DNA from: Algihabitans albus
GTDB lineage: Bacteria; Pseudomonadota; Alphaproteobacteria; Kiloniellales; DSM-21159
NCBI RefSeq assembly: GCF_042140275.1
Contig: NZ_CP159482.1
Direction: 5' to 3' (one strand)
DNA length: 24,000 nt
A model generated the notes under the pieces. It was not told where the DNA came from and did not search any database. It was given only the letters and a program-made list of their open reading frames with translations. Shown piece after piece: positions 1 to 21,849 of this stretch. Position 1 is the first letter of the stretch. Each line of letters opens with the position of its first letter. The translations under genes and the position numbers were made by a program.

Positions 1-264
1 GATAAGAACCACTGCCGGGAAAACCGCGCCATAGACGATATCGGCAAAGCCGTCCAAGCTCTTGCCCATTCTCGCGACGTCCGGCGGCCGGTTGCTGGTC
101 CTGGCCGCAACGATGCCGTCCAAGTCGTCCGCCAAGGCGGCCCACAGCACGGCCGCCACACCCAGTTCAACGCTCCCGGCGAGAACGAGATGGAAGCCCA
201 AGGCGGAGAAGAGCAGACCCGCTATGGTGATTGCATTAGCCGGGTCGATGAGAAAGCGTAGCAT
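1..264 (-). CDS. CDP-alcohol phosphatidyltransferase family protein, PssA-like (copy 1). Only the N-terminal 88 codons are in the window; the gene continues past the left edge.
   Basis: Absent from the ORF track because it runs off the window. Manual minus-strand translation from ATG 264..262 gives MLRFLIDPANAITIAGLLFSALGFHLVLAGSVELGVAAVLWAALADDLDGIVAARTSNRPPDVARMGKSLDGFADIVYGAVFPAVVLI. It has hydrophobic TM segments and the family motif DxxDG..AR..GxxxDxxxD (DDLDG, AAR, GKSLDGFAD). It starts 36 nt after the stop of the upstream nucleotidyltransferase. Confidence 0.75.
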   Translation of the reverse strand, partial: MLRFLIDPANAITIAGLLFSALGFHLVLAGSVELGVAAVLWAALADDLDGIVAARTSNRPPDVARMGKSLDGFADIVYGAVFPAVVLI

Positions 265-300
265 TGTGCTGCTCCGGAAGCGCTGCTGCTTGGTCGCCCC

Positions 301-1092
301 TTACTCGGCGGCTCGGATGTCGTCACCTTTGCGGCCGGGCCCAAAGATCGCTTCGGCGGTGCCGAGATCAGCCAGGCTGTCGATTTCGAACCACTTCAAG
401 TCTCCGCAGTGCACGGCATCGAGAGAGACGTTCCGCTGTTCCACGAGCTGCTTGAGCAACTGCTCGACATATGCGGTCACGGCGCCCGATTGGATCAGGC
501 GGTCAAGCGCCGGGCGTAGCTGACCTGCAAGCGTTTCGGCGCTGAACTTGAAGAGATTGAGCGTCTTGAACAGGTCCTGACCTGCGGTCGTGTCGCCTGT
601 CTGGTTCATATGGATGGATTGAACATGGTTCGACGCAGAGAGCGTGACTGCCGATCCACCCATCGTCGCGTCGAAGGGCGCTATGGCGGCGCTATCGCGG
701 GAGTCGCCTGTCAAAAGCCGTGACAGAACTTCGGGTTCGAAGAAGACATCTCCTTCGAGAAGAAGCGTATCCTCGCTCAGCGCGTCTCTTGCCAGCCACA
801 GAGAGTAGGCGCTGCCGGTACGGTCGAATAGCGGCGATTCGCAATAGGTGATCTCCACACCGGCGAAGTGGTGTCCGCAGGAGCGGATGATGGCTTCCTT
901 CCTGTAACCCACCACGATTGTCACTTCTTCGATGCCGGAGTGTGCCAGACAAAGAAGTGCATTGTGCAAGATGGGAACGCCGTGGACTTGGACCAGCGGC
1001 TTCGGGCGCCTCGCGGTTATCGGCTGGAGGCGGGATCCGAGGCCTGCCGCGAGGATGATGGCGCGCCGAACGACGTGCGTGGATTGAGTCAT
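301..1092 (-). CDS. LicC/PntC-like nucleotidyltransferase (copy 1); candidate phosphonate cytidylyltransferase
   Basis: 263-aa ORF with ATG at 1092 and a GGAGA SD 6 nt upstream. N-terminal NTP-transferase signature AIILAAGLGSRL..RPKPL. C-terminal WFEIDSLADL, typical of LicC-type cytidylyltransferases. Clear paralog of ORF 4286..5098. Confidence 0.85.
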   Translation of the reverse strand: MTQSTHVVRRAIILAAGLGSRLQPITARRPKPLVQVHGVPILHNALLCLAHSGIEEVTIVVGYRKEAIIRSCGHHFAGVEITYCESPLFDRTGSAYSLWLARDALSEDTLLLEGDVFFEPEVLSRLLTGDSRDSAAIAPFDATMGGSAVTLSASNHVQSIHMNQTGDTTAGQDLFKTLNLFKFSAETLAGQLRPALDRLIQSGAVTAYVEQLLKQLVEQRNVSLDAVHCGDLKWFEIDSLADLGTAEAIFGPGRKGDDIRAAE

Positions 1093-1147
1093 AGGTCGTC
1101 TCCACTGTGGTGACTTCTGGCGGTGTGCCGTCTGCCGGCGGACCTTC

Positions 1148-2338
1148 TCAGGCGAGTTCGCGCAAGGTTTCAGCTATTCGGGTTAGTCCCTGCTCGAGCT
1201 GCGCCAGCGGCAAGCCGTAGGAGAGGCGCAAGCCCCGGAGGTCTCCGAAGGCGTTGCCTGGCACCGTCGCGACACCGGCGTCGTCCAAGAGCAGTCGGGC
1301 GACATCGTCGGCCGACCCGAGCTCCCGTCCGCCGGCGCTGCGGCCGCAGAGATCGCCGACGTCGAGATAGAGGTAGAAGCCACCCTCGGCAGTGGGCAGA
1401 GGAACCCCGTCGAGCTGCGAGATCATCTGCAGGCTTCGCGCCCGCTTGAGGGCGAGCTCAGCCCGAGCCTCTCGAACGAAGCTGTCGTCGTTTTGCTCCA
1501 GGTAGGCCAGGATGGCGTATTGGGCGATGACGTTCGGGTTTGAGGTGGTGTGGCTTTGCAGGGCCTTGACCGCCGAGACGACCTCGCGCGGACCGGCCAA
1601 GTAGCCGATCCGCCAACCGGTCAGGGCCAGAGCCTTGGAGAAGGAATTCACCACCAGCGTCCGCGGGCGGGCGTCTGGCGCCACTGTCAGGATATTGGCG
1701 TGCGTCGCTGGTGCATAAACGAACTCGTGATAGCACTCGTCAAAGATGATCCAGATATCGCGCTCCAGAGCGAAGGCTGCGACCTGAGCCAAGAACGCCT
1801 CGTCGTACACGCGGCCTGTAGGATTGTTTGGTGAGTTGAGTATTATGGCCCGCGTCTTCCCACTTGTCGCGGCCGTGAGCTTCTCGAGGGAGGGGAGGTA
1901 GCCGTCGTCGGCGGTATCCAAATAGACCGGCGTTGCTCCGGCGATCGCCACCTGCGCCGGGAAGGTGCTCCAGTAGGGTCGAGGTACGATAACTTCGTCG
2001 CCTGGGTCCAGGATGGTCATGGTGGCGTTGAAGAGTGCCTGTTTCGCACCAGCGGTCACGGCGATCTCGCCGGCTTCCCAGAACAGTCCGGTCTGTCGGG
2101 CGACCCTCTTGGCGACCGCCTGGCGTAGCGTCTCCAAGCCAAGGGTGTCGGTGTAGCGGCTGACGCCTCCCTCGATCGCGGCGATCGCGGCCGAACGGAT
2201 GATCTGCGGCGGTTTCGACCAGAGTTCGCCAGCGGAGAAATCGATGATCTCGCGCCCTTCCGCCGCCGCCCTTTTGGCGGCAAGGCGGGCGTTGGACGTT
2301 CCGGAGCTGGCGAATAGCGTTGTTCGCTGCGCGAGCAT
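1148..2338 (-). CDS. Class I PLP-dependent aminotransferase (aspartate aminotransferase family); candidate phosphonopyruvate transaminase
   Basis: 396-aa ORF. Motifs NSPNNPTG and SFSKALALTGWRIGY (PLP lysine in SFSK). AGGAGA SD before ATG 2338. Starts 13 nt after the PEP mutase stop. Confidence 0.9.
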   Translation of the reverse strand: MLAQRTTLFASSGTSNARLAAKRAAAEGREIIDFSAGELWSKPPQIIRSAAIAAIEGGVSRYTDTLGLETLRQAVAKRVARQTGLFWEAGEIAVTAGAKQALFNATMTILDPGDEVIVPRPYWSTFPAQVAIAGATPVYLDTADDGYLPSLEKLTAATSGKTRAIILNSPNNPTGRVYDEAFLAQVAAFALERDIWIIFDECYHEFVYAPATHANILTVAPDARPRTLVVNSFSKALALTGWRIGYLAGPREVVSAVKALQSHTTSNPNVIAQYAILAYLEQNDDSFVREARAELALKRARSLQMISQLDGVPLPTAEGGFYLYLDVGDLCGRSAGGRELGSADDVARLLLDDAGVATVPGNAFGDLRGLRLSYGLPLAQLEQGLTRIAETLRELA

Positions 2339-2351
2339 GACGCTTCTCTCC

Positions 2352-3320
2352 TTAGTCGGCTGCTCCGGCGCGCAGAGGCAAGGCTTCGGTCACGTCCTGC
2401 TCAGGGTGAATTGGCAGGTAGGTCCGCTCGGCGCTGGAGAGCTCGGCGTAGTCGAGCAACTCGAAGATCTCCTTCAAGGTCGCGATCTCGCCTTCGACGT
2501 CTGCGACGCTCTCGTCGCGCCGAACCCGTTCGCAGAGCAGCTGCATGGCAGCTGCGGCGGCTCGCATGTTATGATTGCCCCAGATCACCGCCGAGACGCC
2601 GGCGCTGCGGAAGCGCTGCATCGGCGTTCGGTAGTAGGTCGTCGGGACGATGACGACCGGACGTTTATTGTCCCACGCCTCGACGAAGCCGAGTATCTCG
2701 CTTGCGTCGGAGAGGCGCGAGTGGATCAGGATTGCATCGGCGCCTGCATCTCCGTAGCGATGCGCGCGGTCGAGCGCCTCCTGCAATCCGTGCCCGGCAA
2801 TCAGGGCTTCGATACGGGCCACCACCACGAAATCGTCGTCTCCAGCCGAGTCGCGGGCGGCCCTCAGGCGGCCGCAGAACTCCTCCACGCCGGCGAGAGG
2901 ATGCCGGTCTCCAACGAAGGAGTTCATCTTCGGGAACTGCTTGTCCTCCAGGCAGATCCCGGCGGCGCCGCGATGACTCAGCTTGCGAACGAGGAGGCGA
3001 ACGTTATTGAAGTTTCCGAACCCGCTGTCGCCATCGACCAGGATGGGGATCGACGTAGAGTCCGCCATACGCTCGACCACGTCGACGACTTGGCTCCAAG
3101 ACGCTTCGTTGGCATCTCGCAATCCCAGCGCTGTCGAGATCGAGAGGCCCGATGCCCAAATCCCGGAGAATCCGTTGCGCTCTACGATAAGTGCCGAGAG
3201 GGCATCGTGCGCCTCCATGAGAAACGCTAGCTCTTCGGACTGGATTGCACTGCGTAGAGTCTGGGATTTCGTTCTGAGAGGCAGGGATGCCGTCGTAGGG
3301 CCATAGGGGTCAGTTTTCAT
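2352..3320 (-). CDS. ppm: Phosphoenolpyruvate phosphomutase (PEP mutase)
   Basis: Carries the Ppm-diagnostic motif EDKX5NS (EDKQFPKMNS). Also GIWASGLS, DGDSGFG, ARIEA and ILIHS, which match mutase active-site positions. The track start at 3350 is TTG. ATG at 3320 is preceded by GAGGTGG, so I use 3320. Confidence 0.9.
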   Translation of the reverse strand: MKTDPYGPTTASLPLRTKSQTLRSAIQSEELAFLMEAHDALSALIVERNGFSGIWASGLSISTALGLRDANEASWSQVVDVVERMADSTSIPILVDGDSGFGNFNNVRLLVRKLSHRGAAGICLEDKQFPKMNSFVGDRHPLAGVEEFCGRLRAARDSAGDDDFVVVARIEALIAGHGLQEALDRAHRYGDAGADAILIHSRLSDASEILGFVEAWDNKRPVVIVPTTYYRTPMQRFRSAGVSAVIWGNHNMRAAAAAMQLLCERVRRDESVADVEGEIATLKEIFELLDYAELSSAERTYLPIHPEQDVTEALPLRAGAAD

Positions 3321-3450
3321 TTTCCACCTCGGGTTTCTTGGAGAACTCAATAAATATGAGAATTTATATTGATATACTCAACATAATCATTTAAAATATA
3401 TTAGGTCATACGAGTTAATTCCGGCTTTTACTTTAACTCCAAGAGTTGTA
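3321..3450 (-). promoter_or_regulatory. AT-rich island A; candidate promoter/operator region for ppm-aminotransferase-NTase1-PT1
   Basis: 26% G+C by hand count over 3341..3440, in otherwise GC-rich DNA. It lies directly upstream of the ppm ATG. It shares collinear motifs with island B. Confidence 0.45.
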
Positions 3451-4166
3451 GGGCTTATAAGCAGATTCCCGACCCAGTTTGCGTCGTGAGCATGAGGTCG
3501 GTGTCTATACGCAGTTCCAGCGTCCGACAGGCACAGGGCCTGTGCGCTGCGAACGCCGGCGCGGGCTCTAGCCAGAGTCCGAAACGTCAGCGCGGCTGAC
3601 GCTGAGACACTGAAGAGCGTGATGATGGCCCTGCCGGCAGCGGGGATCCTGGTTGAGGCGACGTGGAGTGCGGCGAAGCCCAGGAAGAGGCAGCACAGCA
3701 GAGTCGGAAAGCTCTCGTCCGGGAGCCATGGGCGCGCCAGAAAGGCGATTGCCAGGAGCGGTACGTCGTAGGACAGAGGCCCTCCGAGAAAGTGCTCGTC
3801 GTCGAAGAGACCGAAGTTGCTGCAGTGGCTGAGGCGGACCGCGCCGCTCACCAGCAGCGCCAGAGCTGCAAAGAGCGAGAGCAGCGACCCTTCGCCGATC
3901 TGAAGCAGCACGGCTGCCGGAAAAGCGGCGCCGTAGATGAAGTTGGCAAAGCCGGTGAGGCTCTTGCCGATCATCGCTGCTTCCGACGAGCGGTTGCGCG
4001 AGCGGCAGGCAACAACGCCGTCGAGATGGTGTGCCAGCATGGCCCAGAGCGCAATGGCGACAGCCAGCTCCAGTTCGCCTGCAAGCGCGACGTACAGACC
4101 CAGCGTCGAGCACCCCAGACCGGCGATCGTGATCACATTAATGGAATCGGCAAGGTGGCGGGGCAT
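3387..4166 (-). CDS. CDP-alcohol phosphatidyltransferase-like membrane protein (copy 2) with a degenerate catalytic motif
   Basis: The track ORF 3387..4394 overlaps the upstream gene. Alignment to copy 1 (MPRHLADSINVITIAGL vs MLRFLIDPANAITIAGL) puts the start at ATG 4166. Multiple hydrophobic helices. The motif region reads AHHLDGVVACR...GKSLTGFANFIYG, so three of four conserved Asp are replaced. The last ~25 codons run into AT-rich DNA. Confidence 0.65.
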   Translation of the reverse strand: MPRHLADSINVITIAGLGCSTLGLYVALAGELELAVAIALWAMLAHHLDGVVACRSRNRSSEAAMIGKSLTGFANFIYGAAFPAAVLLQIGEGSLLSLFAALALLVSGAVRLSHCSNFGLFDDEHFLGGPLSYDVPLLAIAFLARPWLPDESFPTLLCCLFLGFAALHVASTRIPAAGRAIITLFSVSASAALTFRTLARARAGVRSAQALCLSDAGTAYRHRPHAHDANWVGNLLISPTTLGVKVKAGINSYDLIYFK

Positions 4167-4285
4167 TGTCTCACTTCCGTGCCAGCGATCGACAGCTGTG
4201 GGAGCAGCTGCAGCGGACGTCTCTCGTTTCCGATCGCCCGACGCGAGGGCGAAGCTGAAGCGGCTGCCCTGATTGCGATCGTTTG

Positions 4286-5098
4286 TCAGATTGCCAAGGC
4301 AGGGCGGAGAGAGAAGGCGGCGTCGCCAAGGTCGTTCGGTGTCAACTGCCTTTCCGCCATCTGGAGATCGCTTTCCTTGTCGATCTCGAACCACTTGAGG
4401 CGGTCGCAGCGGACGGCCGCAAGTTTCAAGCGCTCCTGCGCAGCCAGCATGCTTAGCAGTTGTTCCGTATAGGCCGTGACGGCGCCGGAGCGGATGAGGC
4501 CGTCCAGGGCCGGCAGCACCGCCTGTCGCAGGCTGTCGGCGGAGAAACGGAAGAGGTTGATGGTTTTATAGAGCGCTGTCGCACCGGTCTGTCGGTCGGC
4601 GGGCGTCTGCTTTAGCCGGACGTCCTGCACGTAGTTCTTCGCGCAGAGCGTCACTGCCGATCCTTCCATCGTCTCGTCAAAAGGCGCGACTGCGGCCACG
4701 TCCGACTCTCGGGACGAGAGGACGCGATCCAGCACGGCGCGCTCGAAGAAGACGTCGCCCTCCAGCAAAAGGCAATCGCCTGCCATCAGCGCATCGCGCG
4801 CCAGCCATAACGAATAGGCGCTTCCAGTCCGGTCGAAGACTCCGGATTCACAATAGGTGATCTCCAGATCACCGAAGTACTGGCCGAAGAACTTCTGAAT
4901 TCTCTCTTTCCGGTAGCCCACGACGATGGTGGCCCTTTTGACGCCGGCAGCTTCGAGCTGATGCAATGCATGGTGCAGCAGCGGAACGCCGAAAATCGGG
5001 ACCAGCGGCTTTGGGCGGTCGTCGGTCAGGGGGCGCAGGCGGGAGCCGAGACCGGCGGCAAGAATCACGGCACGCTCTGGTACGGCTCGATCCGTCAT
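4286..5098 (-). CDS. LicC/PntC-like nucleotidyltransferase (copy 2)
   Basis: 270-aa ORF with ATG 5098 and a GAAGGA upstream. Motifs AVILAAGLGSRL..RPKPL, ITYCES..FDRTGSAYSLWLARDAL..LLLEGDVFFE and WFEIDKESDL. Roughly 55-60% identical by eye to ORF 301..1092. Confidence 0.85.
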   Translation of the reverse strand: MTDRAVPERAVILAAGLGSRLRPLTDDRPKPLVPIFGVPLLHHALHQLEAAGVKRATIVVGYRKERIQKFFGQYFGDLEITYCESGVFDRTGSAYSLWLARDALMAGDCLLLEGDVFFERAVLDRVLSSRESDVAAVAPFDETMEGSAVTLCAKNYVQDVRLKQTPADRQTGATALYKTINLFRFSADSLRQAVLPALDGLIRSGAVTAYTEQLLSMLAAQERLKLAAVRCDRLKWFEIDKESDLQMAERQLTPNDLGDAAFSLRPALAI

Positions 5099-5269
5099 GA
5101 GCTGCTATTCCTTCTGTCCTGAAAGGTGCCGCGCGATGCTGCAGCAAGCAAAGCGCAGGCGTGCCCGAGTTCGTCGAGAGAGCATCGGGACGTCCGACTT
5201 TGCGGCGCCGCTGCGGGGAATGCCTGTTGAAGCTGGTGCATCTCCCCAGAAAGCGACGGGGCGCCAGTG

Positions 5270-5375
5270 TATTCAAATAAATAAGACTAAATATATTCAG
5301 AATTGTATTATGCAGTTATTTAAATATATGAAAAATTTTATTTTTGTTTGATTCTAAGCAGCACGTTTTTTTGCA
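5270..5375 (-). promoter_or_regulatory. AT-rich island B; candidate promoter/operator region for NTase2-PT2
   Basis: 19% G+C by hand count over 5271..5370. It lies inside a 450-nt non-coding gap between the gntR-like stop and the NTase2 start. Confidence 0.45.
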
Positions 5376-5547
5376 TTCAGGGTAAATCTGTCTGGCACGA
5401 TTACCCCGACGAAGCGCTGCCGACAGGCGTTCGAAAGCTCGGCTTTGACGCGATAAGGCGCTGTATCTGCCGGGGTCGCTCGGCTGTATCCCCGGATCGG
5501 CTCTATCTGCCGTACCGACCCGCAGGACGGAGCCGGAAAACACTGGG

Positions 5548-6273
5548 TTATAAGCGCGCCTCGCCGTTCGCAATCCCGTGGTACTCCGCGCCGTTCGAGA
5601 GAAAGGCCCGGGCAAGTCCCTCTCTGGCGAGCAGGGGCAGGTTTTCGTGCTTCCGCTGATGCAGGCGATCGAGCTGCTTGACGGCGTCCGCTGTCTTCCC
5701 GGCTCGGAGGTTCGACACAAGCCGTGTCAGTTCTGGGCGGATCTGACCGAGGTGTCCTTCGCTGGAGAGATCCATAACCCGCATGTAATGGCTCTTGTCG
5801 TTGAAGCCGCGAATGCAGGAGACCATCAGAGGGTTTCTCGACAGAGCCGCGATAGTGACATAGAGACGCTCGATGCGCCGAGCCAGGAGGTCGTGGCTGT
5901 CCTTTTGGTTGGGTGTGCCGGTCGTGATCTCGTCGTCGTCAAAGCGAAACTCTTCGAAGCGCCGCTCTTCTTTGGCTGCTTCCAACCCGAACCGCAGGCT
6001 GTGCTTCAGCACGACGAAGGCGAACTCGTAAAGCGCGCGCAGCTCCTCGACGTCCAACTGTTTGCAGAAGAAGCCGCGGTTGGGCACACCGACGATCAGG
6101 TCCTCGGCGAGCAGGCGGCTCAGGGCTTCGCGAACCGGCGTCGGACTGAGGTCGAGCTCTTCGGAGAGCTCGTTGATCTGCAACTGCTCGCCGGGTCTGA
6201 AACGTGCGTTAACCACCAGCTCTTTGATCCGCCCGTAGGCCAGTTCGACCTTCTTCGCCTCGATCCTAGCCAT
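5548..6273 (-). CDS. GntR-family transcriptional regulator, FadR-like (N-terminal wHTH plus helical FCD-type C-domain)
   Basis: 241-aa ORF. The N-terminus YGRIKELVVNARFRPGEQLQINELSEELDLSPTPVREALSRLLAEDLI is a typical GntR wHTH. ATG 6273 with a GGGAGG upstream. Confidence 0.85.
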   Translation of the reverse strand: MARIEAKKVELAYGRIKELVVNARFRPGEQLQINELSEELDLSPTPVREALSRLLAEDLIVGVPNRGFFCKQLDVEELRALYEFAFVVLKHSLRFGLEAAKEERRFEEFRFDDDEITTGTPNQKDSHDLLARRIERLYVTIAALSRNPLMVSCIRGFNDKSHYMRVMDLSSEGHLGQIRPELTRLVSNLRAGKTADAVKQLDRLHQRKHENLPLLAREGLARAFLSNGAEYHGIANGEARL

Positions 6274-6637
6274 AGGTCCCTGCCTCCCGCTTGCGGCCGG
6301 ATAAGCTTGAGAGGTCTGTGAGATAGGACAGCAAATCGTTTGGAGCGCGCGAACCCACTTCTCCTTGTTTCGCAGTTGTCCGCCCGGGACAAACCGATCG
6401 TACGCCAGATGATTCCTTGCGCCCTATCGCGCCACACACCGCCAACTCCGCGGCCTATTCCGGCAATCGAAACTTTTCCGATACAAAAGTGTCATCTTTT
6501 GCATTGGAATCCACCTACCAAGGTTGGTGACTCGACAATATAGGCGAGAATACGTCGTCGGCTAATATCGCCAACGGAGAGGTCTTTCAGTTTTTGCTAT
6601 GGTATTGTTCTTACTCGAAAGACAGCTGCGAAGTCTC

Positions 6638-7297
6638 TCAACCGACCCTTCGTTGAGTACGGTCTCCAGCCTCGAGCGCTTCTGACGCCAAGCCGACCTC
6701 AACGAGGGGCGAACCGCTCAAACTTCCGGACTGCTGCACGGCCTGCAGCACCTGAGCTGAGACTTCCAGGCGTGCCGCAGCGATCCGATGGCGTCCCCAC
6801 TGAACCGGCGGACCGACGAACTCCACGGGGCAGCCCGCCTTCTCGATTACGTGACTGTAGATCTTCAGCGGCATAACGCAGAGATAGCGCGTGATGCCAT
6901 GGCGTAGGCCGTAGGCTTGGCAGGCGGCGATCAGTTCGTGCACCACCCTGCGGCGGAGGTTGGGCGGGATCGCTCGGGTGACACCGAAGCGCGTCGCCTC
7001 CCAGATACTCTCTCCTTCCTCGAAGCGATGGTCGACCAGCCGTGGCCAGATCGTTCGGATCATGTAGGGCCGGGTGGTGGGCAAGAGCCGCGTTATGCCG
7101 CAGGCTTGGCCGTTGGTGTCCAGACGGACGATGTACTTGGCAGCCGGCGTGTCGAACTGATCGTATTCCAGTCCGTTGTAATGCGGGACATCCCAACCCT
7201 GACGCCGCACGAAGAGTTCGTAGCGCAGCCGGTGCTGGGAGACCCAGGCCTCCCCGCAGCGGTGTGCGCTTTCCCAGTCGAAGCACAGAGCGGTCAT
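6638..7297 (-). CDS. LuxI-family acyl-homoserine-lactone synthase
   Basis: Conserved LuxI residues are present in HRLRYELFVRRQGWDVPHYNGLEYDQFDT (R, F, W, E, D, D) and in WEATRF. The track start 7324 is TTG. ATG 7297 has a strong AGGAGAG SD 5-6 nt upstream. Confidence 0.9.
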   Translation of the reverse strand: MTALCFDWESAHRCGEAWVSQHRLRYELFVRRQGWDVPHYNGLEYDQFDTPAAKYIVRLDTNGQACGITRLLPTTRPYMIRTIWPRLVDHRFEEGESIWEATRFGVTRAIPPNLRRRVVHELIAACQAYGLRHGITRYLCVMPLKIYSHVIEKAGCPVEFVGPPVQWGRHRIAAARLEVSAQVLQAVQQSGSLSGSPLVEVGLASEALEAGDRTQRRVG

Positions 7298-7390
7298 GGA
7301 TCTCTCCTGCCTTTTCACAGGCAAGGAGAGCAGAGTGAAGAGGGCGCGACAGCTACTTGGGCTGGCAATAGATGAGATGTCGAGAAACCG

Positions 7391-8119
7391 CTAAACTAAC
7401 AGAAGCCCCTTTTGTATCGCTCGAACGATCGCAGCGATACGGCTTCCGGTTTCAAGTTTTCGCATTGCATTCTTTATATGATGATTGACCGTATTTGGGC
7501 TAATTCCCAGAATGGTGCCTGTGTCCCAGGACGACTTGCCCATCGCGCTCCAATAGAGGCACTCCCGCTCGCGGCGGGAGAGAATGGGCGAATCAGGGTC
7601 TTCATCACAGCGCACCAGCAGGCGCGTAGAGACGGATCGAAAGTGCTGGGCGGCCGCCTGCAGTTGAACCACGCGGTTCTCGGCAATGGCCTGTCCGCTT
7701 TCTTCCGCAAAACTGACCACGGCGAGACTGCAATTAGGGCCGTGCAGCGGCACGGTTATGCCGCCTTTCAAGCCGAAGTCGGCCGCCTCGTCGAGAACGC
7801 GTCGCTCTTCACCGTCGGTCGTGGTGCTGCGTCGGATGTCGCTCCACTGGAAGGCCGCCGCCTGACGGAGACTCTGTGACAGAACCGGATCGATCTTCTC
7901 GTAGCCGCGCTCGAAGTAGCGAGCTTGCCACTCGACGGGATAGTTGAGGAAAACCGCCGGATAAGACGGGGTCGGGATGGCAAGGTCTTTGTGATCCGTA
8001 AGAGAACCGTAAGCGGTCCAAGGAAACCCCAGGCCTTGGGCGAAACAGGCTAGCCGGTCGAAGGCGTCTCTGGCGTCGGTGGCATCGCTTGCCTCTTCCA
8101 GGAACCGGGGAAGGTCCAT
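7391..8119 (-). CDS. LuxR-family AHL-responsive transcriptional regulator
   Basis: The track ORF extends to 8251 with a basic, low-complexity N-extension. ATG 8119 (MDLPRFLEE..) has a GGAGA SD and gives a typical 242 aa. Autoinducer-domain residues present: W..Y, YEKIDP, FQW, GGITVP. C-terminal HTH: LSRRERECLYWSAMGKSSWDTGTILGISPNTVNHHIKNAMRKL. Confidence 0.9.
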   Translation of the reverse strand: MDLPRFLEEASDATDARDAFDRLACFAQGLGFPWTAYGSLTDHKDLAIPTPSYPAVFLNYPVEWQARYFERGYEKIDPVLSQSLRQAAAFQWSDIRRSTTTDGEERRVLDEAADFGLKGGITVPLHGPNCSLAVVSFAEESGQAIAENRVVQLQAAAQHFRSVSTRLLVRCDEDPDSPILSRRERECLYWSAMGKSSWDTGTILGISPNTVNHHIKNAMRKLETGSRIAAIVRAIQKGLLLV

Positions 8120-8279
8120 GTGCGCTATCTCCAAAACTATGGAACTTGACCGCCCCTCTTGCTTTGACCTTCCGGACCCTTCCTCTCTTGCTCCGGGCCG
8201 CCATGACGGCGCTGGTCGAGCTTTTCCCCTTTTGGTTGCCAACACCGCCACGCCGACGGTCCCGCCGCTTGGCTGAGAT

Positions 8280-9081: not shown

Positions 9082-9378
9082 AGGCTATCCGCGCACCCCA
9101 TCCAACAAGGTGCGCAAGCAGCAACTGCGCGATCAGATCAGGGGGCAGCAGGCCTACGACCTGGCCGCAAAACAGCTGGTCACACTATAAGCGGGCGACC
9201 CAATAGCCCACGGCAAAGCCGTTCTGACGAGACGATGATCTGCTCGACCGCTGCCCGGATGTCGTCGCCGGTCGGCGCTCAAGCTCTTGGGGTCAAGTCA
9301 TGCCATAGCCGACCAGTGAAAGAGATTGCGGTCGCGTCAATCTGTGTCGACTCAATAGCGCGCACCCGAAGTCGTTGC

Positions 9379-10161
9379 TCAGACCTTGGCGCGTTCTTCC
9401 ACGAGGCCTCCGGGCGGGGTTCGGCGCAGCAGGTAGATATCCATGATCCAGCCGTGCCGGTCGCGGGCGGCGGCGCGGGCCGCGACGATCTTCGGCCCGA
9501 TCTCGGCAAGCGGGCCGCTGAACAGGCGTTCCTCGGGCATGCCCAGGTAGGCGCCCCACCAGATCGTCACATTCTCTTCGCGCAGAACCTGGAAAGCGCA
9601 GTCGCCGTCGAGCATGACGACCAGCGTGTCGACCTCCCCGGGCCAGCCGGACTCGCGCAACCGCCGCCCCGTGGTCACGAGAAACGGCGCCCCGATCTCG
9701 TTGAGTGGAATCCTATGAGCCGCGGTCAAGGCCTGAATAGCCGTGATCCCGGGGATCATCCGAAGACGCGGTGGCGGCTCCAGCCGCGCCGCGATGCGAA
9801 GCGCGCTGTCGTAGAGCGAGGGATCGCCCCAGATCAGCAGAACGACATGGTCGGGCGTCGGAGTCCGGGTGGAGACGGCCTCGGTCCAGGCTGCCGCGAT
9901 CGCCTCGTGCCAAGCCTCTACGCCGGCGCGGTAGTTCGGGTCCGTCGCATCGCGTCGCGGCAGGTCGAACTCGGCGATCTCTGTGGAGCGGTTGGTCAGC
10001 ACGCGGTCGCAGATCTGCCGACGCAGATCGGCCAGGTCCGCCTTGTCGCTGCCCTTGCGCGGGATGAGAATCAGGTCGGCCACATTGATGGCGGCCGCTC
10101 CCTGATAGGTCAGGTGATCGGGATTGCCGGTTCCGATGCCGATCAGGGTCAGCTCACGCAT
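9379..10161 (-). CDS. cobF: Precorrin-6A synthase (deacetylating)
   Basis: 260 aa. Tetrapyrrole-methylase N-terminus MRELTLIGIGTGNPDHLT. WGDPSLYDS and IPGITA motifs. Length and domain layout match CobF. ATG 10161 overlaps the cobA stop by 8 nt. Confidence 0.88.
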   Translation of the reverse strand: MRELTLIGIGTGNPDHLTYQGAAAINVADLILIPRKGSDKADLADLRRQICDRVLTNRSTEIAEFDLPRRDATDPNYRAGVEAWHEAIAAAWTEAVSTRTPTPDHVVLLIWGDPSLYDSALRIAARLEPPPRLRMIPGITAIQALTAAHRIPLNEIGAPFLVTTGRRLRESGWPGEVDTLVVMLDGDCAFQVLREENVTIWWGAYLGMPEERLFSGPLAEIGPKIVAARAAARDRHGWIMDIYLLRRTPPGGLVEERAKV

Positions 10162-10894
10162 CGTGGTCGTCCGGCCCGGTCTCGGCCAGCGGTCCGTACA
10201 GGATGAGAGCCGGCTGGCTGCCGGGATCGGCCGCCAGCCGTTCGGCCAGCGCCGCCACCGTGGTGCGGTGCAGCCGCTGCTCGGGTCTGCTCACCAACTC
10301 GGCCAGCAGCGCAGGGGTCGACGGCGGAAGGTCCAGCGCGATCAGCGCCTCGGCCAGCTTGGGAAAGGTCCTGCGGCCCATGAAGACCACGGTGGTCGCC
10401 GCGGGATCGGCCAGGGGCGCCAGGTCGAGATCGCCGGGCAGGGTGCCGTTGCTGTCGTGCCCGGTCACGAACTGGACTCGCCGCGCGGTCAGCCGCCGCG
10501 AGAGAGGGATGCCGGCGGCAGCGGCGGCGGCGCAGGCCGAGGGGACGCCGGGAATGATTTCATGCGCGATCCCCGCCGTTCGCAGGGCGGTCAGTTCCTC
10601 CTCCAGGCGCCCGAAGATACCGGCATCGCCCGACTTGAGGCGCACGACCCGGGCGCCCCCGATGGCATAGTCGACGAGAAGGCGGCTGACGTGACTCTGT
10701 TTCGGAGAGGGCCGCCCGGCGCGCTTGCCGACCCCGACGAGATCGGCGCCGCCGCGGGCATGGGACAGGATCGGCCCCGCCGAAAGGTCGTCGAACAAAA
10801 CCGCGTCCGCCGCCTGCAAGCGTTTGACCGCCTTGAGTGTCAGAAGCTCCGGGTCTCCGGGGCCGGAACCGATGAAGCTGACGAACCCTGTCAT
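10154..10894 (-). CDS. cobA: Uroporphyrinogen-III C-methyltransferase (SUMT)
   Basis: 246 aa. Motifs FIGSGPGDPELLTLKAV, RLKSGDAGIFGR and IPGVPSA. ATGA overlap with the cobB stop. Confidence 0.88.
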   Translation of the reverse strand: MTGFVSFIGSGPGDPELLTLKAVKRLQAADAVLFDDLSAGPILSHARGGADLVGVGKRAGRPSPKQSHVSRLLVDYAIGGARVVRLKSGDAGIFGRLEEELTALRTAGIAHEIIPGVPSACAAAAAAGIPLSRRLTARRVQFVTGHDSNGTLPGDLDLAPLADPAATTVVFMGRRTFPKLAEALIALDLPPSTPALLAELVSRPEQRLHRTTVAALAERLAADPGSQPALILYGPLAETGPDDHDA

Positions 10895-12213
10895 CCGCCG
10901 GCCTCGGCGATCAGGTGAAAGAAGCTTCCGGTGACTCTGCCGCGGTGCGATCCGGTCTCGGCCACCGCAGCGCCGTCGGCATCGGCCACCTTGGCCAAGG
11001 GAGCGTCGGGTTGTTCGAGGATTGTCGAGTAGTGAAACTCGTGCCCTCGCAGACGCGCCCCGACCCCGAAGCCGGGAATGGGTGCGGTCAGGCGCGCCTG
11101 GCGGTACCCCAGGTGGAGTTTGCGCTTCTCATAGCTCGTCACAAGACCGAGCAGGCCGGCCATGGGATGGGACTGTCCATGCTTGTCCACCAGGGCCTGA
11201 CCGAGGGCCATGTAACCGCCGCACTCTCCATGTACAGGGCGGGTCTCGGCATGGGCGCGCAAGCCCTCGTGAAAGCGGCCCGCCGCCGCCAGCCGGCCCG
11301 CATGCAGCTCGGGATAGCCGCCCGGCAGCCAGACGATGTCCGCGGTCGGGTCCGGGGCTTCGTCGGTCAGGGGAGAGAAGGGCAGGATCTCCGCGCCGGC
11401 GACGCGCCAGCTTTCCAGAAGGTGGGGATAGACGAAGGAGAAGGCTTCGTCCTGTGCCAGCGCTATGCGTTGCGCAGGCGGCGGCGGTAAGGCGCTGGGG
11501 CTCCGGGAGACGTCGGCTTTTGCGGCAGCGGTGCGGATTGCGGCCAGGTCACTGTGGGCGCGCAGGAAGGCCGCGTAGGCGGCGATGGCTTCGTCCAGGT
11601 CGGGATGCTCCACTGCCTGGATCAGTCCGAGATGGCGCTCCGGCAAGGTCAGGTCGCCTTGCCGCGGCAGGGCGCCCAGCACCGGCAGGCCCACCCGTTC
11701 CATGCCCAGCCGGGCCAGGCGCTCGTGGCGGGGACTCGCGACTCGATTGAGGATAACGCCGGCGAAGGGCAGATCGTCACGGTAGCGGGCGAAACCCAGG
11801 GCGGTGGCTGCGGCGGACTGGGCCTGCCCGCCCACATCCAGAACCAGCAGGACCGGCCAACCCAGGAGTGCGGCGGTCTCGGCGCTCGAGCCCCAGCCGC
11901 TCTCGCCCTGGGTGGCGACCCCGTCGTAGAGCCCCATCGAGCCCTCGGCGACGATCAGATCGGCGCCTTCGGCGCGCGCCGCTATGGTCGCCAGCAGGCC
12001 GCGGTGCATCGCCCAGGTGTCCAGATTGAAGGAGCCGCGGCCGGCAGCGGCGCGGTGAAAGGCCGGGTCGATGTAGTCGGGACCGCTCTTGAAGGGTTGG
12101 ACGGTCAATCCGTCCTCGGCGAAGGCGCGCAGCAGGCCGAGCATCACGGTGGTCTTGCCGCTGCCCGAGCTGGGGGCCGACACCAGCAGGCCTGGAGGAC
12201 TAGTCATCGCCAT
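10891..12213 (-). CDS. cobB: Hydrogenobyrinate/cobyrinate a,c-diamide synthase
   Basis: [12 protein letters not shown] nucleotide-binding N-terminus and a C-terminal glutamine amidotransferase with ECGGYM. The track start 12306 lies inside cobM. ATGs at 12213 and 12207 ([11 protein letters not shown]) overlap the cobM stop by 14 or 8 nt. Confidence 0.88.
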
Positions 12214-12985
12214 CGCCCTCCACCGACTTGGGCCGAAAGCGGCGATCGTAGTCGGCGGCGTAAAGGCGGCTCTCCTGAAAAGCTTCGGCGGCCAGCGCCG
12301 GGCCAACGAGGATCAGCGCGGTGCGCTCGATCGCGTGCTTCTCCCGCTGCAAGGTGACTTCGAGGTTTGCCAGCGTGGCGCGGAGGATTCGCTCGTCCGG
12401 CCAGCTCGCACGATAGACGATGGCTGCCGGGCAGTCGGGTCCGTAGGCGGGCGTCAGGGTCTGCACGACCTCCGCAAGCTTGTGAATCGACAGGTGAATG
12501 GCCAGGGTGGTGCCGGTCTTCGCGAAGTTCGCCAGGCTTTCGCCGGGCGGCATGGCAGAGGCACGGCCGGGCGTGCGGGTCAGCACGAGAGACTGGGCAA
12601 GGCCGGGCAGCGTCAACTCCGCCTGCAGCGCCGCCGCCGCAGCCGCGAAGGCAGGCACCCCAGGCGTGACGCTGACCGGGATGCCTTCCGCGCGCAGACG
12701 GCGCAGCTGTTCACCCATGGCCGACCAGATCGAGAGATCGCCGGAGTGCAGCCGTGCCACGTCCAGCCCCTCGGCGTGGGCGCGCCGGCATTCGGCCAGG
12801 ATTGCCTCCAGGTCCAGCGGGGCGGTGTTGATCACCCTTGCATCCGGCGGGCAGTGCGTCAGCACCGCCTCCGGGATCAGCGATCCGGCATAGAGGCAGA
12901 TAGGGGATGCCGCAATCAGGTCCCGGCCGCGCAAGGTCAGAAGGTCCGGGGCGCCGGGACCGGCCCCGATGAAGTGCACGGTCAC
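12200..12985 (-). CDS. cobM: Precorrin-4 C11-methyltransferase
   Basis: 261 aa. Motifs [27 protein letters not shown] and TPGVPAF. GTG start in a GTGA overlap with the cobE stop. Confidence 0.9.
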
Positions 12986-13350
12986 CGCAATCCTCCCAGG
13001 GCGAGGGCGCAGGTGGCGCGACCGTCGGCTGAAATGCAGCGCGTCGACAGCAGCTTGGCGCCGGCCCCCGCACCGACGAGAGCGCTGGCTTCCGCCACGC
13101 TGCCGGTGCCGTAACGCTGCAGCGCCGGGGGGCTTCGGGTCGGCGTTTCGCAGCGGGCCAGAGCCTGGGCGGAGATCGCCCGCACCGGCAGCCCAAGCAG
13201 GCCGGCGAGGCCATGAAGGCAGGCGGCCTGCGCCTTGTCCTCGGGTGCGCAGAGCGCCGCGACCTCATGGCTGCCGGCCGCGCGGGCGAGCGCGTCGCGC
13301 AGGCTCTCCGTCGTCGCGATGCTGCGAAAGCCGAAGCCGGCAACGATCAT
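12982..13350 (-). CDS. cobE: CobE / CbiG C-terminal-domain protein
   Basis: The track ORF is over-extended to 13542. ATG 13350 forms an ATGA overlap with the cobL stop. [10 protein letters not shown]...LGLPVRAIS...[14 protein letters not shown] resembles the CbiG_C/CobE family. Confidence 0.75.
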
Positions 13351-14546
13351 AGCGTTACGCTCCACTGCACCAGCGGATAGGCAGCATGCCAGCTGCGCTT
13401 GCTGCCCAGCGGCCCGGCTTCCGACAGGTCGATGCGCAGGAGGCTGCCGCCCTTGCGCGCCTGCCAGGCGGTCAGGAGCGATTCGGATTCCAGGGTGACC
13501 GCGTTCGAAACCAGGCGCGTGCCCGCCGGCAAACGTGACCAAAGGTCGGTCAACAGGGCGTCCGAGAGGCCGCCGCCGATGAAGACCGCATCCGGGACCG
13601 GGAGGGTTTCCAGAGCCTCCGGTGCCTGTCCCTCAATCACCTCCAGCCGGTCGACCCCAAGCGTCTCCGCGTTGCTGCGGATGCGCGCGGCTCTGTCGGG
13701 TCGGGTCTCGATCGCCGTCGCCCTGTTGGCCGGGTGGCACAGCAGCCACTCGATCCCGACCGAGCCAGCGCCGGCGCCGATGTCCCAAAGATGAGCGCCC
13801 GCGACCGGCGCCAAGGCCGAGAGGGTCAGCGCACGGAGGGGGCGCTTGGTGATCTGCCCGTCGTGATCGAAGAAATCGTCGGGCCGCCCGGAAGCCGTTG
13901 GGATCGCTCGGCCGTCGCCCGCGATCTGCAGCCCGACGCAGACCGGGTGGTGGATATCGGCGAGAGTCATCGTTTCGGCCGTCGCCCGGCGTAGCCGTTC
14001 GCGCGGACCGCCCAGAGCCTCCATGACCCAGAGTTCGGTCGGCCCGAATCCCCGCTCCGCGAGCCAGGCGGCCAGCTGCCCCACCGCGGTGCCGTCGCGC
14101 AGCAGCACCAGAAGCTTTGCCCCGGACGCCAGGTGCGGGCGCAAGCGTGCGAAGGGGGCCGCATGCAGGGCGAGACAGGGCGTCCGCTCCAGCGGCCAGC
14201 CGAGCCGCGCGGCCGCCAGCGAAAGGCTGGAGGGGGCCGGCAGGGCGCGCCACTCGCCGGCCTCCAGCTGTTCGGCCAATATGGTGCCGGCACCGAACCA
14301 GAAGGGATCGCCTGAGGCCAGCATGACGACCCGCCGGCCGCGCAGGTTCAGCAGCTTGGGAATCCCCTCTGCGAAGGGGACCGGCCATGCCTGCGTCTCG
14401 GCGGTCAATGCCGGCAGAAGTGCGAGAAGCCGGCTCGCGCCCATGACCACCTCGGCCTCGTCCAAGGCTTGCCGGCTTGCCGGCGACAGGCCCTCGGGTC
14501 CATCCTCCCCGAGTCCGATGATGGTCAGCCAGGGAACCTCAGCCAT
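13347..14546 (-). CDS. cobL: Precorrin-6Y C5,15-methyltransferase (decarboxylating)
   Basis: CbiE-like N-domain (LTIIGLGEDGPEGLS, ASGDPFWFG) fused to a CbiT-like SAM methyltransferase (LWDIGAGAGSVGIEW). The track start 14555 is TTG. ATG at 14546 gives MAEVPWLTIIG. Confidence 0.9.
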   Translation of the reverse strand: MAEVPWLTIIGLGEDGPEGLSPASRQALDEAEVVMGASRLLALLPALTAETQAWPVPFAEGIPKLLNLRGRRVVMLASGDPFWFGAGTILAEQLEAGEWRALPAPSSLSLAAARLGWPLERTPCLALHAAPFARLRPHLASGAKLLVLLRDGTAVGQLAAWLAERGFGPTELWVMEALGGPRERLRRATAETMTLADIHHPVCVGLQIAGDGRAIPTASGRPDDFFDHDGQITKRPLRALTLSALAPVAGAHLWDIGAGAGSVGIEWLLCHPANRATAIETRPDRAARIRSNAETLGVDRLEVIEGQAPEALETLPVPDAVFIGGGLSDALLTDLWSRLPAGTRLVSNAVTLESESLLTAWQARKGGSLLRIDLSEAGPLGSKRSWHAAYPLVQWSVTL

Positions 14547-15300
14547 AGCTTGCAACCTGCTTATTCTCGGCGGGACCTCCGAAGCCAGTGCTCTGGCCCA
14601 AGCGGTGGCGGCGCACGGGCTGCCTGCGACCCTGTCCTACGCGGGCCGTGTCGCGCGGCCAAAAGCGCAACCGATACCCCAGCGCGTCGGCGGTTTCGGT
14701 GGCGTCGCGGGCCTGGCGGGGTATCTGCGCGACGAGCGCGTAACGCATCTGATCGACGCAACCCACCCCTTCGCGGCGCAGATCAGTCGCAACGCCGTCG
14801 AGGCTTGCAGGCAGGCCGAGGTGCCGCTGGTTGCCTTGACGCGCCCGCCTTGGCGCCCGCAGGAGGGAGATCGTTGGCTGGAGGTGCCGGATATCCCGGC
14901 TGCGGTGGCGTCGCTGGCGGGACCGCCGCGGCGTGTCATGCTGGCGCTGGGGCGTTTGCAGCTTGCTGCCTTCGCGGGGCAGCCTCAACACCGCTACCTG
15001 CTTCGGGTCGTGGACATACCGGAGACGCCGCCACCGCTGCCGGACCACAGCCTGGTGGTTTCGCGCGGCCCCTTCACCCCGGCAGAGGACGAGGCGCTGA
15101 TGCGGCAGCATCGAATTGAGACTCTGGTTTGCAAAAACGCCGGAGGCAGCGGCGCCCACGCCAAGCTCGAGGCTGCCCGTGTGCTCGGCTTGCCCGTGGT
15201 GATGATTGCCCGCCCCACCATGCCTGCGCGCCGGGAGGTCACATCGCTGGAGGCTCTGTTCGACTGGCTGTCTCATTCGGATGCCGACCTCGGCGTATAG
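14521..15300 (+). CDS. cobK: Precorrin-6A reductase
   Basis: Motifs LLILGGTSEA, HLIDATHPFA and VCKNAGG. The track ORF from 14023 is antisense cobL for most of its 5' part. The nearest in-frame ATGs before LLILGG are 14518 and 14521, so the start is uncertain. Confidence 0.82.
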   Translation: MVSQGTSAIACNLLILGGTSEASALAQAVAAHGLPATLSYAGRVARPKAQPIPQRVGGFGGVAGLAGYLRDERVTHLIDATHPFAAQISRNAVEACRQAEVPLVALTRPPWRPQEGDRWLEVPDIPAAVASLAGPPRRVMLALGRLQLAAFAGQPQHRYLLRVVDIPETPPPLPDHSLVVSRGPFTPAEDEALMRQHRIETLVCKNAGGSGAHAKLEAARVLGLPVVMIARPTMPARREVTSLEALFDWLSHSDADLGV

Positions 15301-16025
15301 ACCAAAGGACGGCCGTCGCGCTCTATCAGGCGCGTTAGGCTGGAGCCAACGATCACAAGAGTACGCATGTCGGCCATTTCCGGCTTTGCCTCGCCCAGCG
15401 ACACGATGAGCAGCGCCTCGTCTTCCGTCGAGACGGCGCGGGCGAAGATCACCGGGCGGCTTTCGGTACAGAGGTCTTTCAGCAAGGTCAGAACGCGGGT
15501 GAAACCGTCCGGCCGGGCCTGTGAGCGCGGGTTGTAGAAGGCCATGGCGAAGTCTGCCTCGACGGCGAGGCGCAACCGCCGTTCGATCAGCGACCAAGGC
15601 TTGAGGTTGTCCGAGAGATTGAGGACACAGAAGTCGTGACCCAAGGGCGCGCCGGTGCGCGCCGCCGCGGCCAGCATCGCGGTGACACCCGGCAAGACCC
15701 GGATATCCAGCGACCGCCAATCCGGCGGACCTGCTTCCAGTGCCTCGAAGACCGCGGAGGCCATCGCGAAGACGCCCGGGTCGCCCGAGGAGACGATCAC
15801 CACCCGCTGCCCGGCCGCAGCCAGGGTCAAGGCGTGGCGGGCCCGCTCCATCTCGACCCGATTGTCCGAGGCATGCAGGGTCAGGCCGTCGCGGGGTGAG
15901 ATGCGCGCAACGTAGGAGGCGTAGCCCACCACATCGGTGGCCTCGGACAGCGCCCGCTGCACCTCCGGCGTGATCAAGTCGTCGGCGCCGGGACCGAGCC
16001 CGGCGATGCAGAGCCGGCCGCTCAT
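15273..16025 (-). CDS. cobJ: Precorrin-3B C17-methyltransferase
   Basis: The track ORF is fused and extended to 16766. ATG 16025 (MSGRLCIAGLGPGADDLITPE) forms an ATGA overlap with the cobI stop. Motifs SSGDPGVFAMAS and LPGVTAM. Confidence 0.9.
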   Translation of the reverse strand: MSGRLCIAGLGPGADDLITPEVQRALSEATDVVGYASYVARISPRDGLTLHASDNRVEMERARHALTLAAAGQRVVIVSSGDPGVFAMASAVFEALEAGPPDWRSLDIRVLPGVTAMLAAAARTGAPLGHDFCVLNLSDNLKPWSLIERRLRLAVEADFAMAFYNPRSQARPDGFTRVLTLLKDLCTESRPVIFARAVSTEDEALLIVSLGEAKPEMADMRTLVIVGSSLTRLIERDGRPLVYTPRSASE

Positions 16026-16750
16026 GGCCGCCGTCCTTGCCCGTGAACGAGGACAATCGAGAAGTAGGAGGGAACGTAGCCTTCGACGTCGGTCAGCTTG
16101 ACCGCCTTCTCGTCCGCCATGGTGGCGTACTCGACCAGCCAGGCGGTCTCCAAACGGCCGGTCGCGTGGAGGGCACGCCGCACCCGCTCTATGTTGCGGC
16201 CGACCTTCATGACGACCAGCGCATCGCTCTCGGCCATGTGGCGGGTCAAGTCCGCCTCGGGCAGCGTCCCCATCAGGACGGTGAGCACGTCGTCTCCCCA
16301 GGTCATCGGCTGTCCGGTGGCCGTCCAAGCTCCGGACATGCCGGTGATCGCGGGAACGACCTGCAGAGGCACCAGACCCTCGAGACGGGTGTAGAGGTGC
16401 ATGAAGGAGCCGTAGAAGAAGGGATCGCCTTCGCAGAGCACGACGACGTCCTCTCCCGCCTCCGCCACCTGTCGCAGCCTTGCGGTCCAGTCGGCGTAGA
16501 AACCCGAGAGGATCTGGTTGTAGCGCGGATCCGTGACGGGGATCTCCGTCGTCACCGGATACTCCATCGGCAGTTCCACGACACCCTGCGGCAGCAGGCC
16601 TTCGACGATGCCGCGAGCCTGACCCGGACGCCCCGCCTTGCGAAAGAAGGCCACGTTGCGGGCCTGGCGCAGCAGACGGTCGGCCCTGACGCTCATGAGT
16701 TCGGGGTCGCCGGGTCCAAGCCCAACGCCATAGATTGTCCCCGGAGTCAT
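16022..16750 (-). CDS. cobI: Precorrin-2 C20-methyltransferase
   Basis: 242 aa. Motifs IYGVGLGPGDPELMS, CEGDPFFYGSF and VPAITG. ATGA overlap with the cobH stop. Confidence 0.9.
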   Translation of the reverse strand: MTPGTIYGVGLGPGDPELMSVRADRLLRQARNVAFFRKAGRPGQARGIVEGLLPQGVVELPMEYPVTTEIPVTDPRYNQILSGFYADWTARLRQVAEAGEDVVVLCEGDPFFYGSFMHLYTRLEGLVPLQVVPAITGMSGAWTATGQPMTWGDDVLTVLMGTLPEADLTRHMAESDALVVMKVGRNIERVRRALHATGRLETAWLVEYATMADEKAVKLTDVEGYVPSYFSIVLVHGQGRRP

Positions 16751-21826: not shown

Positions 21827-21849
21827 CGGCCGCAATCACATCGTGAGGG

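Follow-up and report, generated by a model that had tools for sequence, protein, structure and literature searches.

The gene PT2, which belongs to a six-gene operon in the 24,000-nucleotide stretch of DNA analysed here (the window), is best explained as an early-stage pseudogene made redundant by its intact paralogue PT1, a reading to which we give a probability of roughly 0.7. Three of the four aspartates of its catalytic motif have been replaced, its original stop codon has been lost, and the gene now gathers changes at close to the neutral rate; from this state of the sequence we infer loss of function. PT2 may be regarded as the relic of a PssA-like CDP-alcohol phosphatidyltransferase. 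It appears to be dispensable because the same operon carries PT1, which is conserved and therefore presumably carries the function. Purifying selection has been lost in PT2 relative to its orthologues and neighbouring genes, and disabling lesions are present in the window's allele as well as in sister alleles. An early-stage pseudogene was one option of the first-pass annotation, whose headline was a candidate pseudoenzyme; the collapse of constraint, the lesions and the redundancy with PT1 favour the former.

The operon consists of six genes arranged head to tail on the minus strand, in the order NTP2-PT2-ppm-aminotransferase-NTP1-PT1 (Table 1). PT1 is cut by the window edge (264..<1), and its full length was seen in L004, a related contig 99% identical to the window. 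According to family knowledge, the operon product is most likely a phosphonate, probably phosphonoalanine. The tailoring logic of nucleotidyl-activated phosphonates has been described (PMC6697681), as have a PalB-type phosphonoalanine branch and "CDP-OH" phosphonolipid clusters (PMC8942020). The nucleotidyltransferase would activate the phosphonate as a CMP conjugate, and the CDP-alcohol-type transferase would move the CMP-activated phosphonate onto a lipid alcohol, with a predicted lipid head group of the phosphonoalanine type. GntR, LuxI and LuxR genes are found upstream of the operon, and a cobalamin cluster lies farther on.

Table 1. Positions of PT2, of its altered sites and of the neighbouring genes in the window.
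Feature	Position	Strand	Remarks
NTP2	4286..5098	-	LicC/PntC-type nucleotidyltransferase upstream of PT2; purifying selection persists (omega 0.13-0.17 pairwise, 0.27 within clade)
PT2 ORF	4166..3387	-	259 codons plus TGA
PT2 core	3570..4166	-	homologous over 199 codons to PssA-like CDP-alcohol phosphatidyltransferases (family length 202 aa); catalytically degenerate (H46, C54, T71, N75; D49 kept)
H46 codon	4029..4031	-	CAC (His) where D1 is GAC
D49 codon	4020..4022	-	D2 kept
T71 codon	3954..3956	-	D3 column
N75 codon	3942..3944	-	D4 column
Codons 71-75	3942..3956	-	ACC GGC TTT GCC AAC (T-G-F-A-N) replacing D3-G-F-A-D4
9-nt in-frame deletion junction	3624..3632	-	GGAMYAVI to GRAII; invariant Tyr182 removed; common to the window and L004 only
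Former stop	3567..3569	-	AGA; ancestral TGA, still TGA in L002 and L003
Read-through tail	3387..3566	-	with the AGA codon, 60 sense codons (3390..3569), then TGA 3387..3389; translates the old PT-ppm spacer; 3' half AT-rich
AT-rich spacer upstream of ppm	3321..3480	-	also in loci with an intact transferase; AT-rich boxes in common with the island 5276-5342
PEP mutase (ppm)	2352..3320	-	TIGR02320, 357 bits, above cut-off; omega 0.05
Aminotransferase	1148..2338	-	PalB/AspAT-like class I/II (PF00155); predicted phosphonopyruvate to phosphonoalanine (PMC8942020)
NTP1	301..1092	-	second nucleotidyltransferase; 59% aa identity to NTP2
PT1 (copy 1)	1..264	-	codons 1-88; D1 to D4 all present; complete gene (202 aa) in L004 and other loci; omega 0.08

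By family, PT2 is a PssA-like CDP-alcohol phosphatidyltransferase. A longer ORF of 335 aa starting at GTG 4394 was rejected, since it overlaps NTP2 and the family alignment begins at ATG 4166. A search of the protein collection gave 27 relatives, and 21 sequences, of which 17 are intact members, were used for the family alignment; members are about 202 aa long and end in ...RTLA followed directly by the stop. The motif D1xxD2G...GxxxD3xxxD4 of PT2 (...MLAHHLDGVVACRSRNRSSEAAMIGKSLTGFANFIYG) reads H46, D49, T71 and N75, with D49, G50 and G67 kept, while PT1 has the corresponding stretch ...ALADDLDGIVAARTSNRPPDVARMGKSLDGFADIVYG; both stretches had been quoted exactly in the first-pass annotation. 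Its statement that only D2 survives in copy 2 (D1 to H, D3 to T and D4 to N) was confirmed in register by this alignment of 21 sequences and the profile built from it, as the columns of H46, T71 and N75 hold Asp in 17/17 intact members. This profile matches the phosphatidylserine synthase PssA of M. jannaschii (MjPSS; 7POW, 7B1K) with E = 5e-9 and puts the PT2 motif columns onto its DxxDGxxAR...GxxxDxxxD. PT2 thus fails the active-enzyme signature D1xxD2GxxAR...GxxxD3xxxD4 with all four Asp. R54C alters the canonical-motif position after DGxxA as well, in a column that is variable in the family of PT2. No match of PT2 to PF01066 was obtained even at E<=1 (gathering threshold 22 bits), and a search of NCBIfam gave just weak pssA-type matches below threshold. 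Scores above the 22-bit cut-off were obtained for the copy 1 fragment (28.9 bits), for full-length PT1 (25.2 bits) and for the intact L002 orthologue (34.4 bits).

In MjPSS, Ca2+ is bound by D1, D2 and D3, and Mg2+ by D1, D3 and D4 (PMC8633023). As D1, D3 and D4 are gone, PT2 retains, according to this pattern, a single Ca2+ ligand (D2) and no Mg2+ ligand. Because ligands of both catalytic metals are lost, PT2 is probably unable to bind the nucleotide-activated donor or to catalyze the transfer. His and Asn are each one mutational step from GAC, and the change of D3 to T took two base changes. The alteration of 3/4 motif Asp when about 24/202 columns have changed has P = 0.0055, a post hoc value because the finding was picked for this very feature. 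This preference may be due to chance, to selected inactivation, or to selection that, once the first Asp had been hit, removed unpaired buried charges or substrate binding.

The 3' end of PT2 has lost its stop codon and has not been replaced. Nine loci were aligned between the stop of NTP2 and the start of ppm. Intact genes end in CTG GCT TGA, and PT2 has CTG GCT AGA, a single T to A change found in every allele still having that position (13/14; the position is deleted in L038). In this alignment the tail of PT2 matches the spacer of the intact loci L002 and L003 base for base. This spacer between the transferase gene and ppm is 250 nt long, is untranslated in intact loci and has an AT-rich 3' half there too. 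The idea that foreign DNA had replaced the 3' end of PT2 was therefore rejected, since the tail aligns with the L002/L003 intergenic spacer; of the two earlier suggestions, a replaced end or a lost stop, only the second held. The tail had been described as the last ~25 codons lying in an AT-rich island. AT-rich sequence does cover the last ~28 codons, but the non-homologous tail comprises 60 codons counted from the former stop. If the stop were read through, the spacer frame of L002 would be open for 53 codons; because the frame was already open, stop-loss took only one neutral mutation. Ribosomes, if they translate PT2 at all, would run 60 codons into the old spacer because the stop TGA became AGA, and 66 nt now separate the end of the ORF from the ppm ATG. 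The tail is no functional extension: its GC3 is 0.43 vs 0.77 in the core and neighbours, its omega is 1.04, its nucleotide diversity is the highest of the region, and residues 222-259 are predicted by AlphaFold to be disordered (pLDDT <50). A promoter and terminator scan of positions 3200-5500 found no convincing minus-strand promoter in the 3321-3480 spacer; its matches, one on the plus strand and one on the minus strand (5334-5307), were uninformative.

The loci L002 and L003 possess a transferase that is 85% and 82% identical in amino acids to PT2, respectively, with 202 aa, all four Asp and a normal stop. Their layout is NTP-PT-ppm-aminotransferase, with only the upstream NTP-PT pair and without the second pair. 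PT2, which had been called the second copy, is second by position in the window only; it is the first of the two transferase genes in the operon and the orthologue of the sole intact transferase of the related loci. The six-gene layout of the window, with a degenerate PT2 and an intact 202-aa PT1, is also present in L001, L004, L037, L038, L040, L041 and seven further contigs, which were fetched via an identical PEP mutase protein, so that the sample is unbiased as to the state of PT2. The form with His, Thr and Asn in place of D1, D3 and D4 (H/T/N) was found only in loci with both pairs, i.e., the window, L001, L004 and 11 further contigs, and every degenerate PT2 is accompanied by PT1. The H/T/N clade has a dS of ~0.05 or less, while sister loci at dS 0.17 have D-D-D-D. 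Among the 32 loci of a scan of GTDB species representatives, which evidently do not include the species of the window, none carries the H/T/N form, the closest locus has <=55% identity, and D-D-D-D was seen in 31/31 loci with a readable motif. Genomes of Bradyrhizobium, Mesorhizobium, Phyllobacterium and Kiloniellales usually have just one pair, in the order ppm-aminotransferase-NTP-PT. The identity of PT1 to intact PT2-type proteins is 62-64% and that of NTP1 to NTP2 is 59%, which indicates that the two NTP-PT pairs are old paralogues. Between the window and L002, dS of the aminotransferase is 0.69 vs 0.17-0.31 for NTP2, PT2 and ppm, and this excess suggests a recombination breakpoint near the ppm/aminotransferase junction.

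Selection within the clade was estimated from 14 alleles, most of them from metagenome assemblies, with an empirical mutation spectrum taken from the fourfold sites of the neighbours and with gaps corrected. The PT2 core carries 21 synonymous (19.5 expected under neutrality) and 32 nonsynonymous changes (40.0 expected), giving an omega of 0.74 (95% CI 0.43-1.30; p = 0.31 vs neutral), in a comparison where recombination among alleles makes mutation counts minimal and polymorphism-level omega is inflated in all genes. Synonymous and nonsynonymous changes numbered 24 and 4 in PT1 (omega 0.08), 35 and 4 in ppm (0.05), 29 and 17 in NTP2 (0.27), 34 and 22 in the aminotransferase (0.30), and 19 and 19 in NTP1 (0.45). 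The pooled neighbours, with 141 and 66 (0.21), differ from PT2 at p = 2e-4 in the Fisher test, a contrast which is less sharp for NTP1 because of its raised omega. Changes per codon position are flat in PT2 (19/13/21), and are 4/1/23 in PT1 and 2/3/34 in ppm. On the clade stem, PT2 has 15 N : 9 S vs 10 N : 33 S for ppm and NTP2 (p = 0.003). By the pairwise Nei-Gojobori method, the PT2 core of the window vs L001 has an omega of 0.53, intact L002 vs L003 has 0.07 and neighbouring genes have 0.00-0.19; the PT2 values of this method (0.53-0.65) miscount codons around the 9-nt and 58-nt deletions, and 0.74 is the gap-corrected estimate. As well, the degenerate clade has changes in 8/43 family-invariant columns (D7, A9, D46, D71, D75, F115, G119 and Y182), as defined from 15 distant family members, and intact sisters differ at 1/43.

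The clade alleles of PT2 showed no deficit of stops or indels that would imply maintenance of the ORF. Over the clade tree 0.92 stop-gains were expected under neutrality and one was observed, and indels occur at 1 per 39 substitutions in the PT2 core vs 1 per 46 in flanking non-coding DNA. At this shallow depth the open frame of PT2 therefore needs no selective explanation.

Several alleles carry further lesions. L037 has TAA at codon 29 of PT2 and its other five operon genes are intact; this nonsense codon is argued to be real, since P0039, an independent allele, has TCA at codon 29 (A29S), a one-step intermediate. L038 and L039 carry a 58-nt frame-changing deletion across the old stop and a different tail. 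Codon 46 is still GAC (D1) in L038/L039 and P0029, and the retention of D1 in L038/L039 places the changes D3 to T and D4 to N before D1 to H. Besides this lineage with D at 46, others have L70F/I or G72D beside T71, so the variant site is not fixed. Non-catalytic invariant residues have been lost too, i.e., F115C and the deleted Y182, with W41S, G72D and G119C in some alleles. A frame of 259-262 codons is open in 12/14 alleles, and the window's allele has neither a frameshift nor an internal stop; its lesions are the loss of three metal ligands, the lost stop and the 9-nt deletion. It had been proposed earlier that orthologous loci be compared for conservation of H/T/N or for decay: conservation does not extend beyond the clade, and decay is visible as the nonsense codon and deletions of sister alleles.

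The AlphaFold model of PT2 has a mean pLDDT of 81 and a pTM of 0.76, with the core mostly >85 and the multi-helix membrane fold present; its best PDB matches are PssA 7B1K/7POW, with a TM of 0.65-0.71 normalised to the target. Because intact homologues in the alignment drive the model, it shows ancestry and not a stable mutant fold. The structure prediction proposed in the first-pass annotation has accordingly confirmed the ancestral fold and the disordered tail, while folding of the mutant is beyond what the model can show.

The main alternative, which we consider unlikely, is that PT2 is a true pseudoenzyme, i.e., a catalytically dead but folded membrane subunit that is kept by selection. 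It might pair with PT1 in a heterodimer, regulate PT1, or anchor NTP2 at the membrane. Dimerisation is obligate in MjPSS and its relatives (PMC8633023), and the helices of PT2 are predicted with high confidence, although this confidence comes from the intact-homologue alignment. The open frame in 12/14 alleles, the window's included, speaks for such a subunit and against a pseudogene, but with ~0.9 stop-gains expected neutrally and one observed it needs no selection, and the indel rate equals that of flanking non-coding DNA. The continued constraint on the adjacent partner gene NTP2 and the lower confidence bound of 0.43, which allows some residual constraint on PT2, point the same way; the omega of PT2 is nevertheless indistinguishable from 1 (p = 0.31), and its codon-position changes are flat. 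The preferential alteration of Asp residues exceeds uniform drift (P ~0.006, post hoc) and could mean selection on the active site, but non-catalytic invariant residues have been lost too, and nonsense and deletion alleles occur in otherwise intact operons. Moreover, the H/T/N form is absent outside one shallow clade, so that conservation across diverged lineages, which a maintained pseudoenzyme would lead one to expect, is not seen. Together with an omega of 0.74 vs 0.07 for the orthologues and 0.08 for PT1, this is why the earlier headline of a candidate pseudoenzyme is not retained. A narrower version, slightly less probable again, holds that PT2 is kept as a dead subunit in a heterodimer with PT1 or for docking of NTP2, and that the loss of 3/4 Asp was the selected silencing of one active site and not drift. 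If true, it would be the first described CDP-alcohol phosphotransferase pseudoenzyme, caught at its origin; our literature search for such a pseudoenzyme found no papers linking the two.

It is also improbable that the protein is useless and its translation selected, with the PT2 ORF shielding the transcript from Rho-dependent polarity or coupling translation to ppm. Such selection would account for the fixed stop-loss (AGA in 13/14 alleles, L038 lacking the position) and an ORF end just 66 nt before the ppm ATG. However, the stop-loss took one neutral mutation in a frame already open, the tail has an omega of 1.04 and is hit by the 58-nt frame-changing deletion in L038/L039, the downstream genes of L037 are all intact in spite of the stop at codon 29, and intact loci work with a 250-nt untranslated AT-rich spacer. 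The AT-richness of this spacer and its boxes in common with the island upstream of the operon suggest that ppm has its own promoter or operator. An active PT2 with altered chemistry, such as a His/Thr/Asn metal site or a different donor, was another option raised earlier; it is very improbable and has no support. In its favour, each of the replacement residues is polar and could serve as a ligand, and D2 and the two motif glycines are retained. Against it, the variant site is not fixed among lineages, both metals are ligated by D1, D3 and D4 in solved structures (PMC8633023), His and Asn are single-step products of GAC, evolution is near neutral, and a nonsense allele exists. As for a sequencing or assembly artefact, for which nothing specific speaks except that the related contig L004 is labelled 2x coverage, the chance is negligible; the same H/T/N and stop-loss recur in 13 further contigs that were assembled independently, with different pipelines and from different samples, and this agreement excludes it.

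Redundant paralogues are well known to decay; PT2 adds a new case, which matters mainly for annotation. Automatic annotation will describe PT2 as an ordinary 259-aa "CDP-alcohol phosphatidyltransferase family protein" or as hypothetical; its probable lack of function should be flagged, and pathway reconstructions should use PT1. The case is a clean and dated one of reciprocal fates after paralogue redundancy: sister loci keep the upstream transferase without the downstream pair, and the lineage of the window keeps the downstream transferase while the upstream one decays. The population alleles show successive steps of this decay, namely active-site loss, stop-loss, in-frame deletion and a nonsense codon. 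The operon may merit more attention than the pseudogene, as it is a Ppd-less cassette that combines ppm with genes for a nucleotidyltransferase, a PssA-like transferase and a PalB-like aminotransferase; this cassette is also present in Bradyrhizobium and Mesorhizobium and predicts an uncharacterised phosphonolipid.

Compared with known systems, PT2 is homologous by descent to the PssA type (PF01066; MjPSS 7B1K/7POW), having 85% aa identity to a member that passes PF01066 and retaining D2, both glycines and the helices. Unlike this type, it has H/T/N for D1/D3/D4, no detectable PF01066 signature, a 60-residue non-homologous tail, a 3-residue deletion and almost neutral evolution. The operon resembles nucleotidyl-activated phosphonate tailoring clusters (PntC/LicC-type cytidylyltransferase and transferase) in its PEP mutase, PF00155 aminotransferase, NTP_transferase genes and CDP-OH transferases (PMC6697681, PMC8942020). 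It differs from them in that no Ppd or AEP transaminase was seen in this operon and in that ppm and the aminotransferase lie between two NTP/PT pairs, whereas Rhizobiales usually have one pair in the arrangement ppm-AT-NTP-PT. Finally, set beside bacterial pseudogenes that arise from redundant paralogues, PT2 stands at a very early stage, as the window's allele is without a frameshift or internal stop; it shares with them an intact paralogue in the same operon, relaxed constraint, the loss of catalytic residues and of the stop, and disabling alleles that are still segregating.

The two nucleotidyltransferases of the operon, NTP2 (4286-5098) and NTP1 (301-1092), are 59% identical, and purifying selection persists on both of them, though just one of their transferase partners is intact. 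At the polymorphism level, the nonsynonymous/synonymous ratio (omega) is higher for NTP1 (0.45) than for NTP2 (0.27). As a separate observation, in allele L045 (6729-7526) 6 nt are inserted in frame close to the 3' end of NTP1, giving GRKGKGDD as against GRKGDD.

Compared with its counterpart in L002, the orthologous locus carrying a single nucleotidyltransferase-transferase pair, the aminotransferase (window 1148-2338; L002:5944-7146) has a dS of 0.69, far above the values of 0.17-0.31 obtained for the three genes upstream of it. This difference in dS suggests a recombination breakpoint near the junction of the aminotransferase and the PEP mutase gene ppm.

The features surrounding these genes are listed in the table. 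The two AT-rich islands have in common AT-rich boxes of ~22 nt with TAAATATAT-like cores, which may represent a common operator or promoter element. The AT-richness of both islands makes the chance control for the shared boxes a weak one. The cobalamin cluster includes several precorrin methylases, CbiC, a CobB/CobQ-type amidotransferase, CobN, and CobW. In the 99%-identical contig L004, a frameshift near L004:9772 breaks up the PLP-fold gene, which is unbroken in the other loci; as L004 is labelled with 2x coverage, this frameshift may be an assembly error.

Features in and around the operon
Feature	Coordinates	Remarks
PLP-fold gene, 523 aa	L004:8790-10359	Downstream of PT1, the intact transferase; beyond the window's left edge, on the 99%-identical contig
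AT-rich island	window 3349-3397	Upstream of ppm
AT-rich island	window 5276-5342	Upstream of NTP2
GntR, LuxI, LuxR genes	window 5548-8251	Directly upstream of the operon
Cobalamin biosynthesis cluster	window 9235-23200	Minus strand

The PEP mutase cassette of the operon is decaying in further genomes. B. uaiense (L035) has a split transferase and a split ppm, B. sacchari (L033) a transferase truncated at the N-terminus, and M. waimense (L023) a split ppm; L010 and L019 contain nucleotidyltransferase fragments.

No Ppd was in view at the cassette, either in the window (1-5098) or in loci L005-L036. Across these regions the cassette joins PEP mutase and a PalB-like aminotransferase to a nucleotidyltransferase and a PssA-like transferase, and it is conserved among genomes of Bradyrhizobium, Mesorhizobium, Phyllobacterium, and Kiloniellales (L005-L036). 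This gene set predicts an uncharacterised phosphonate lipid, whose head group is possibly phosphonoalanine.
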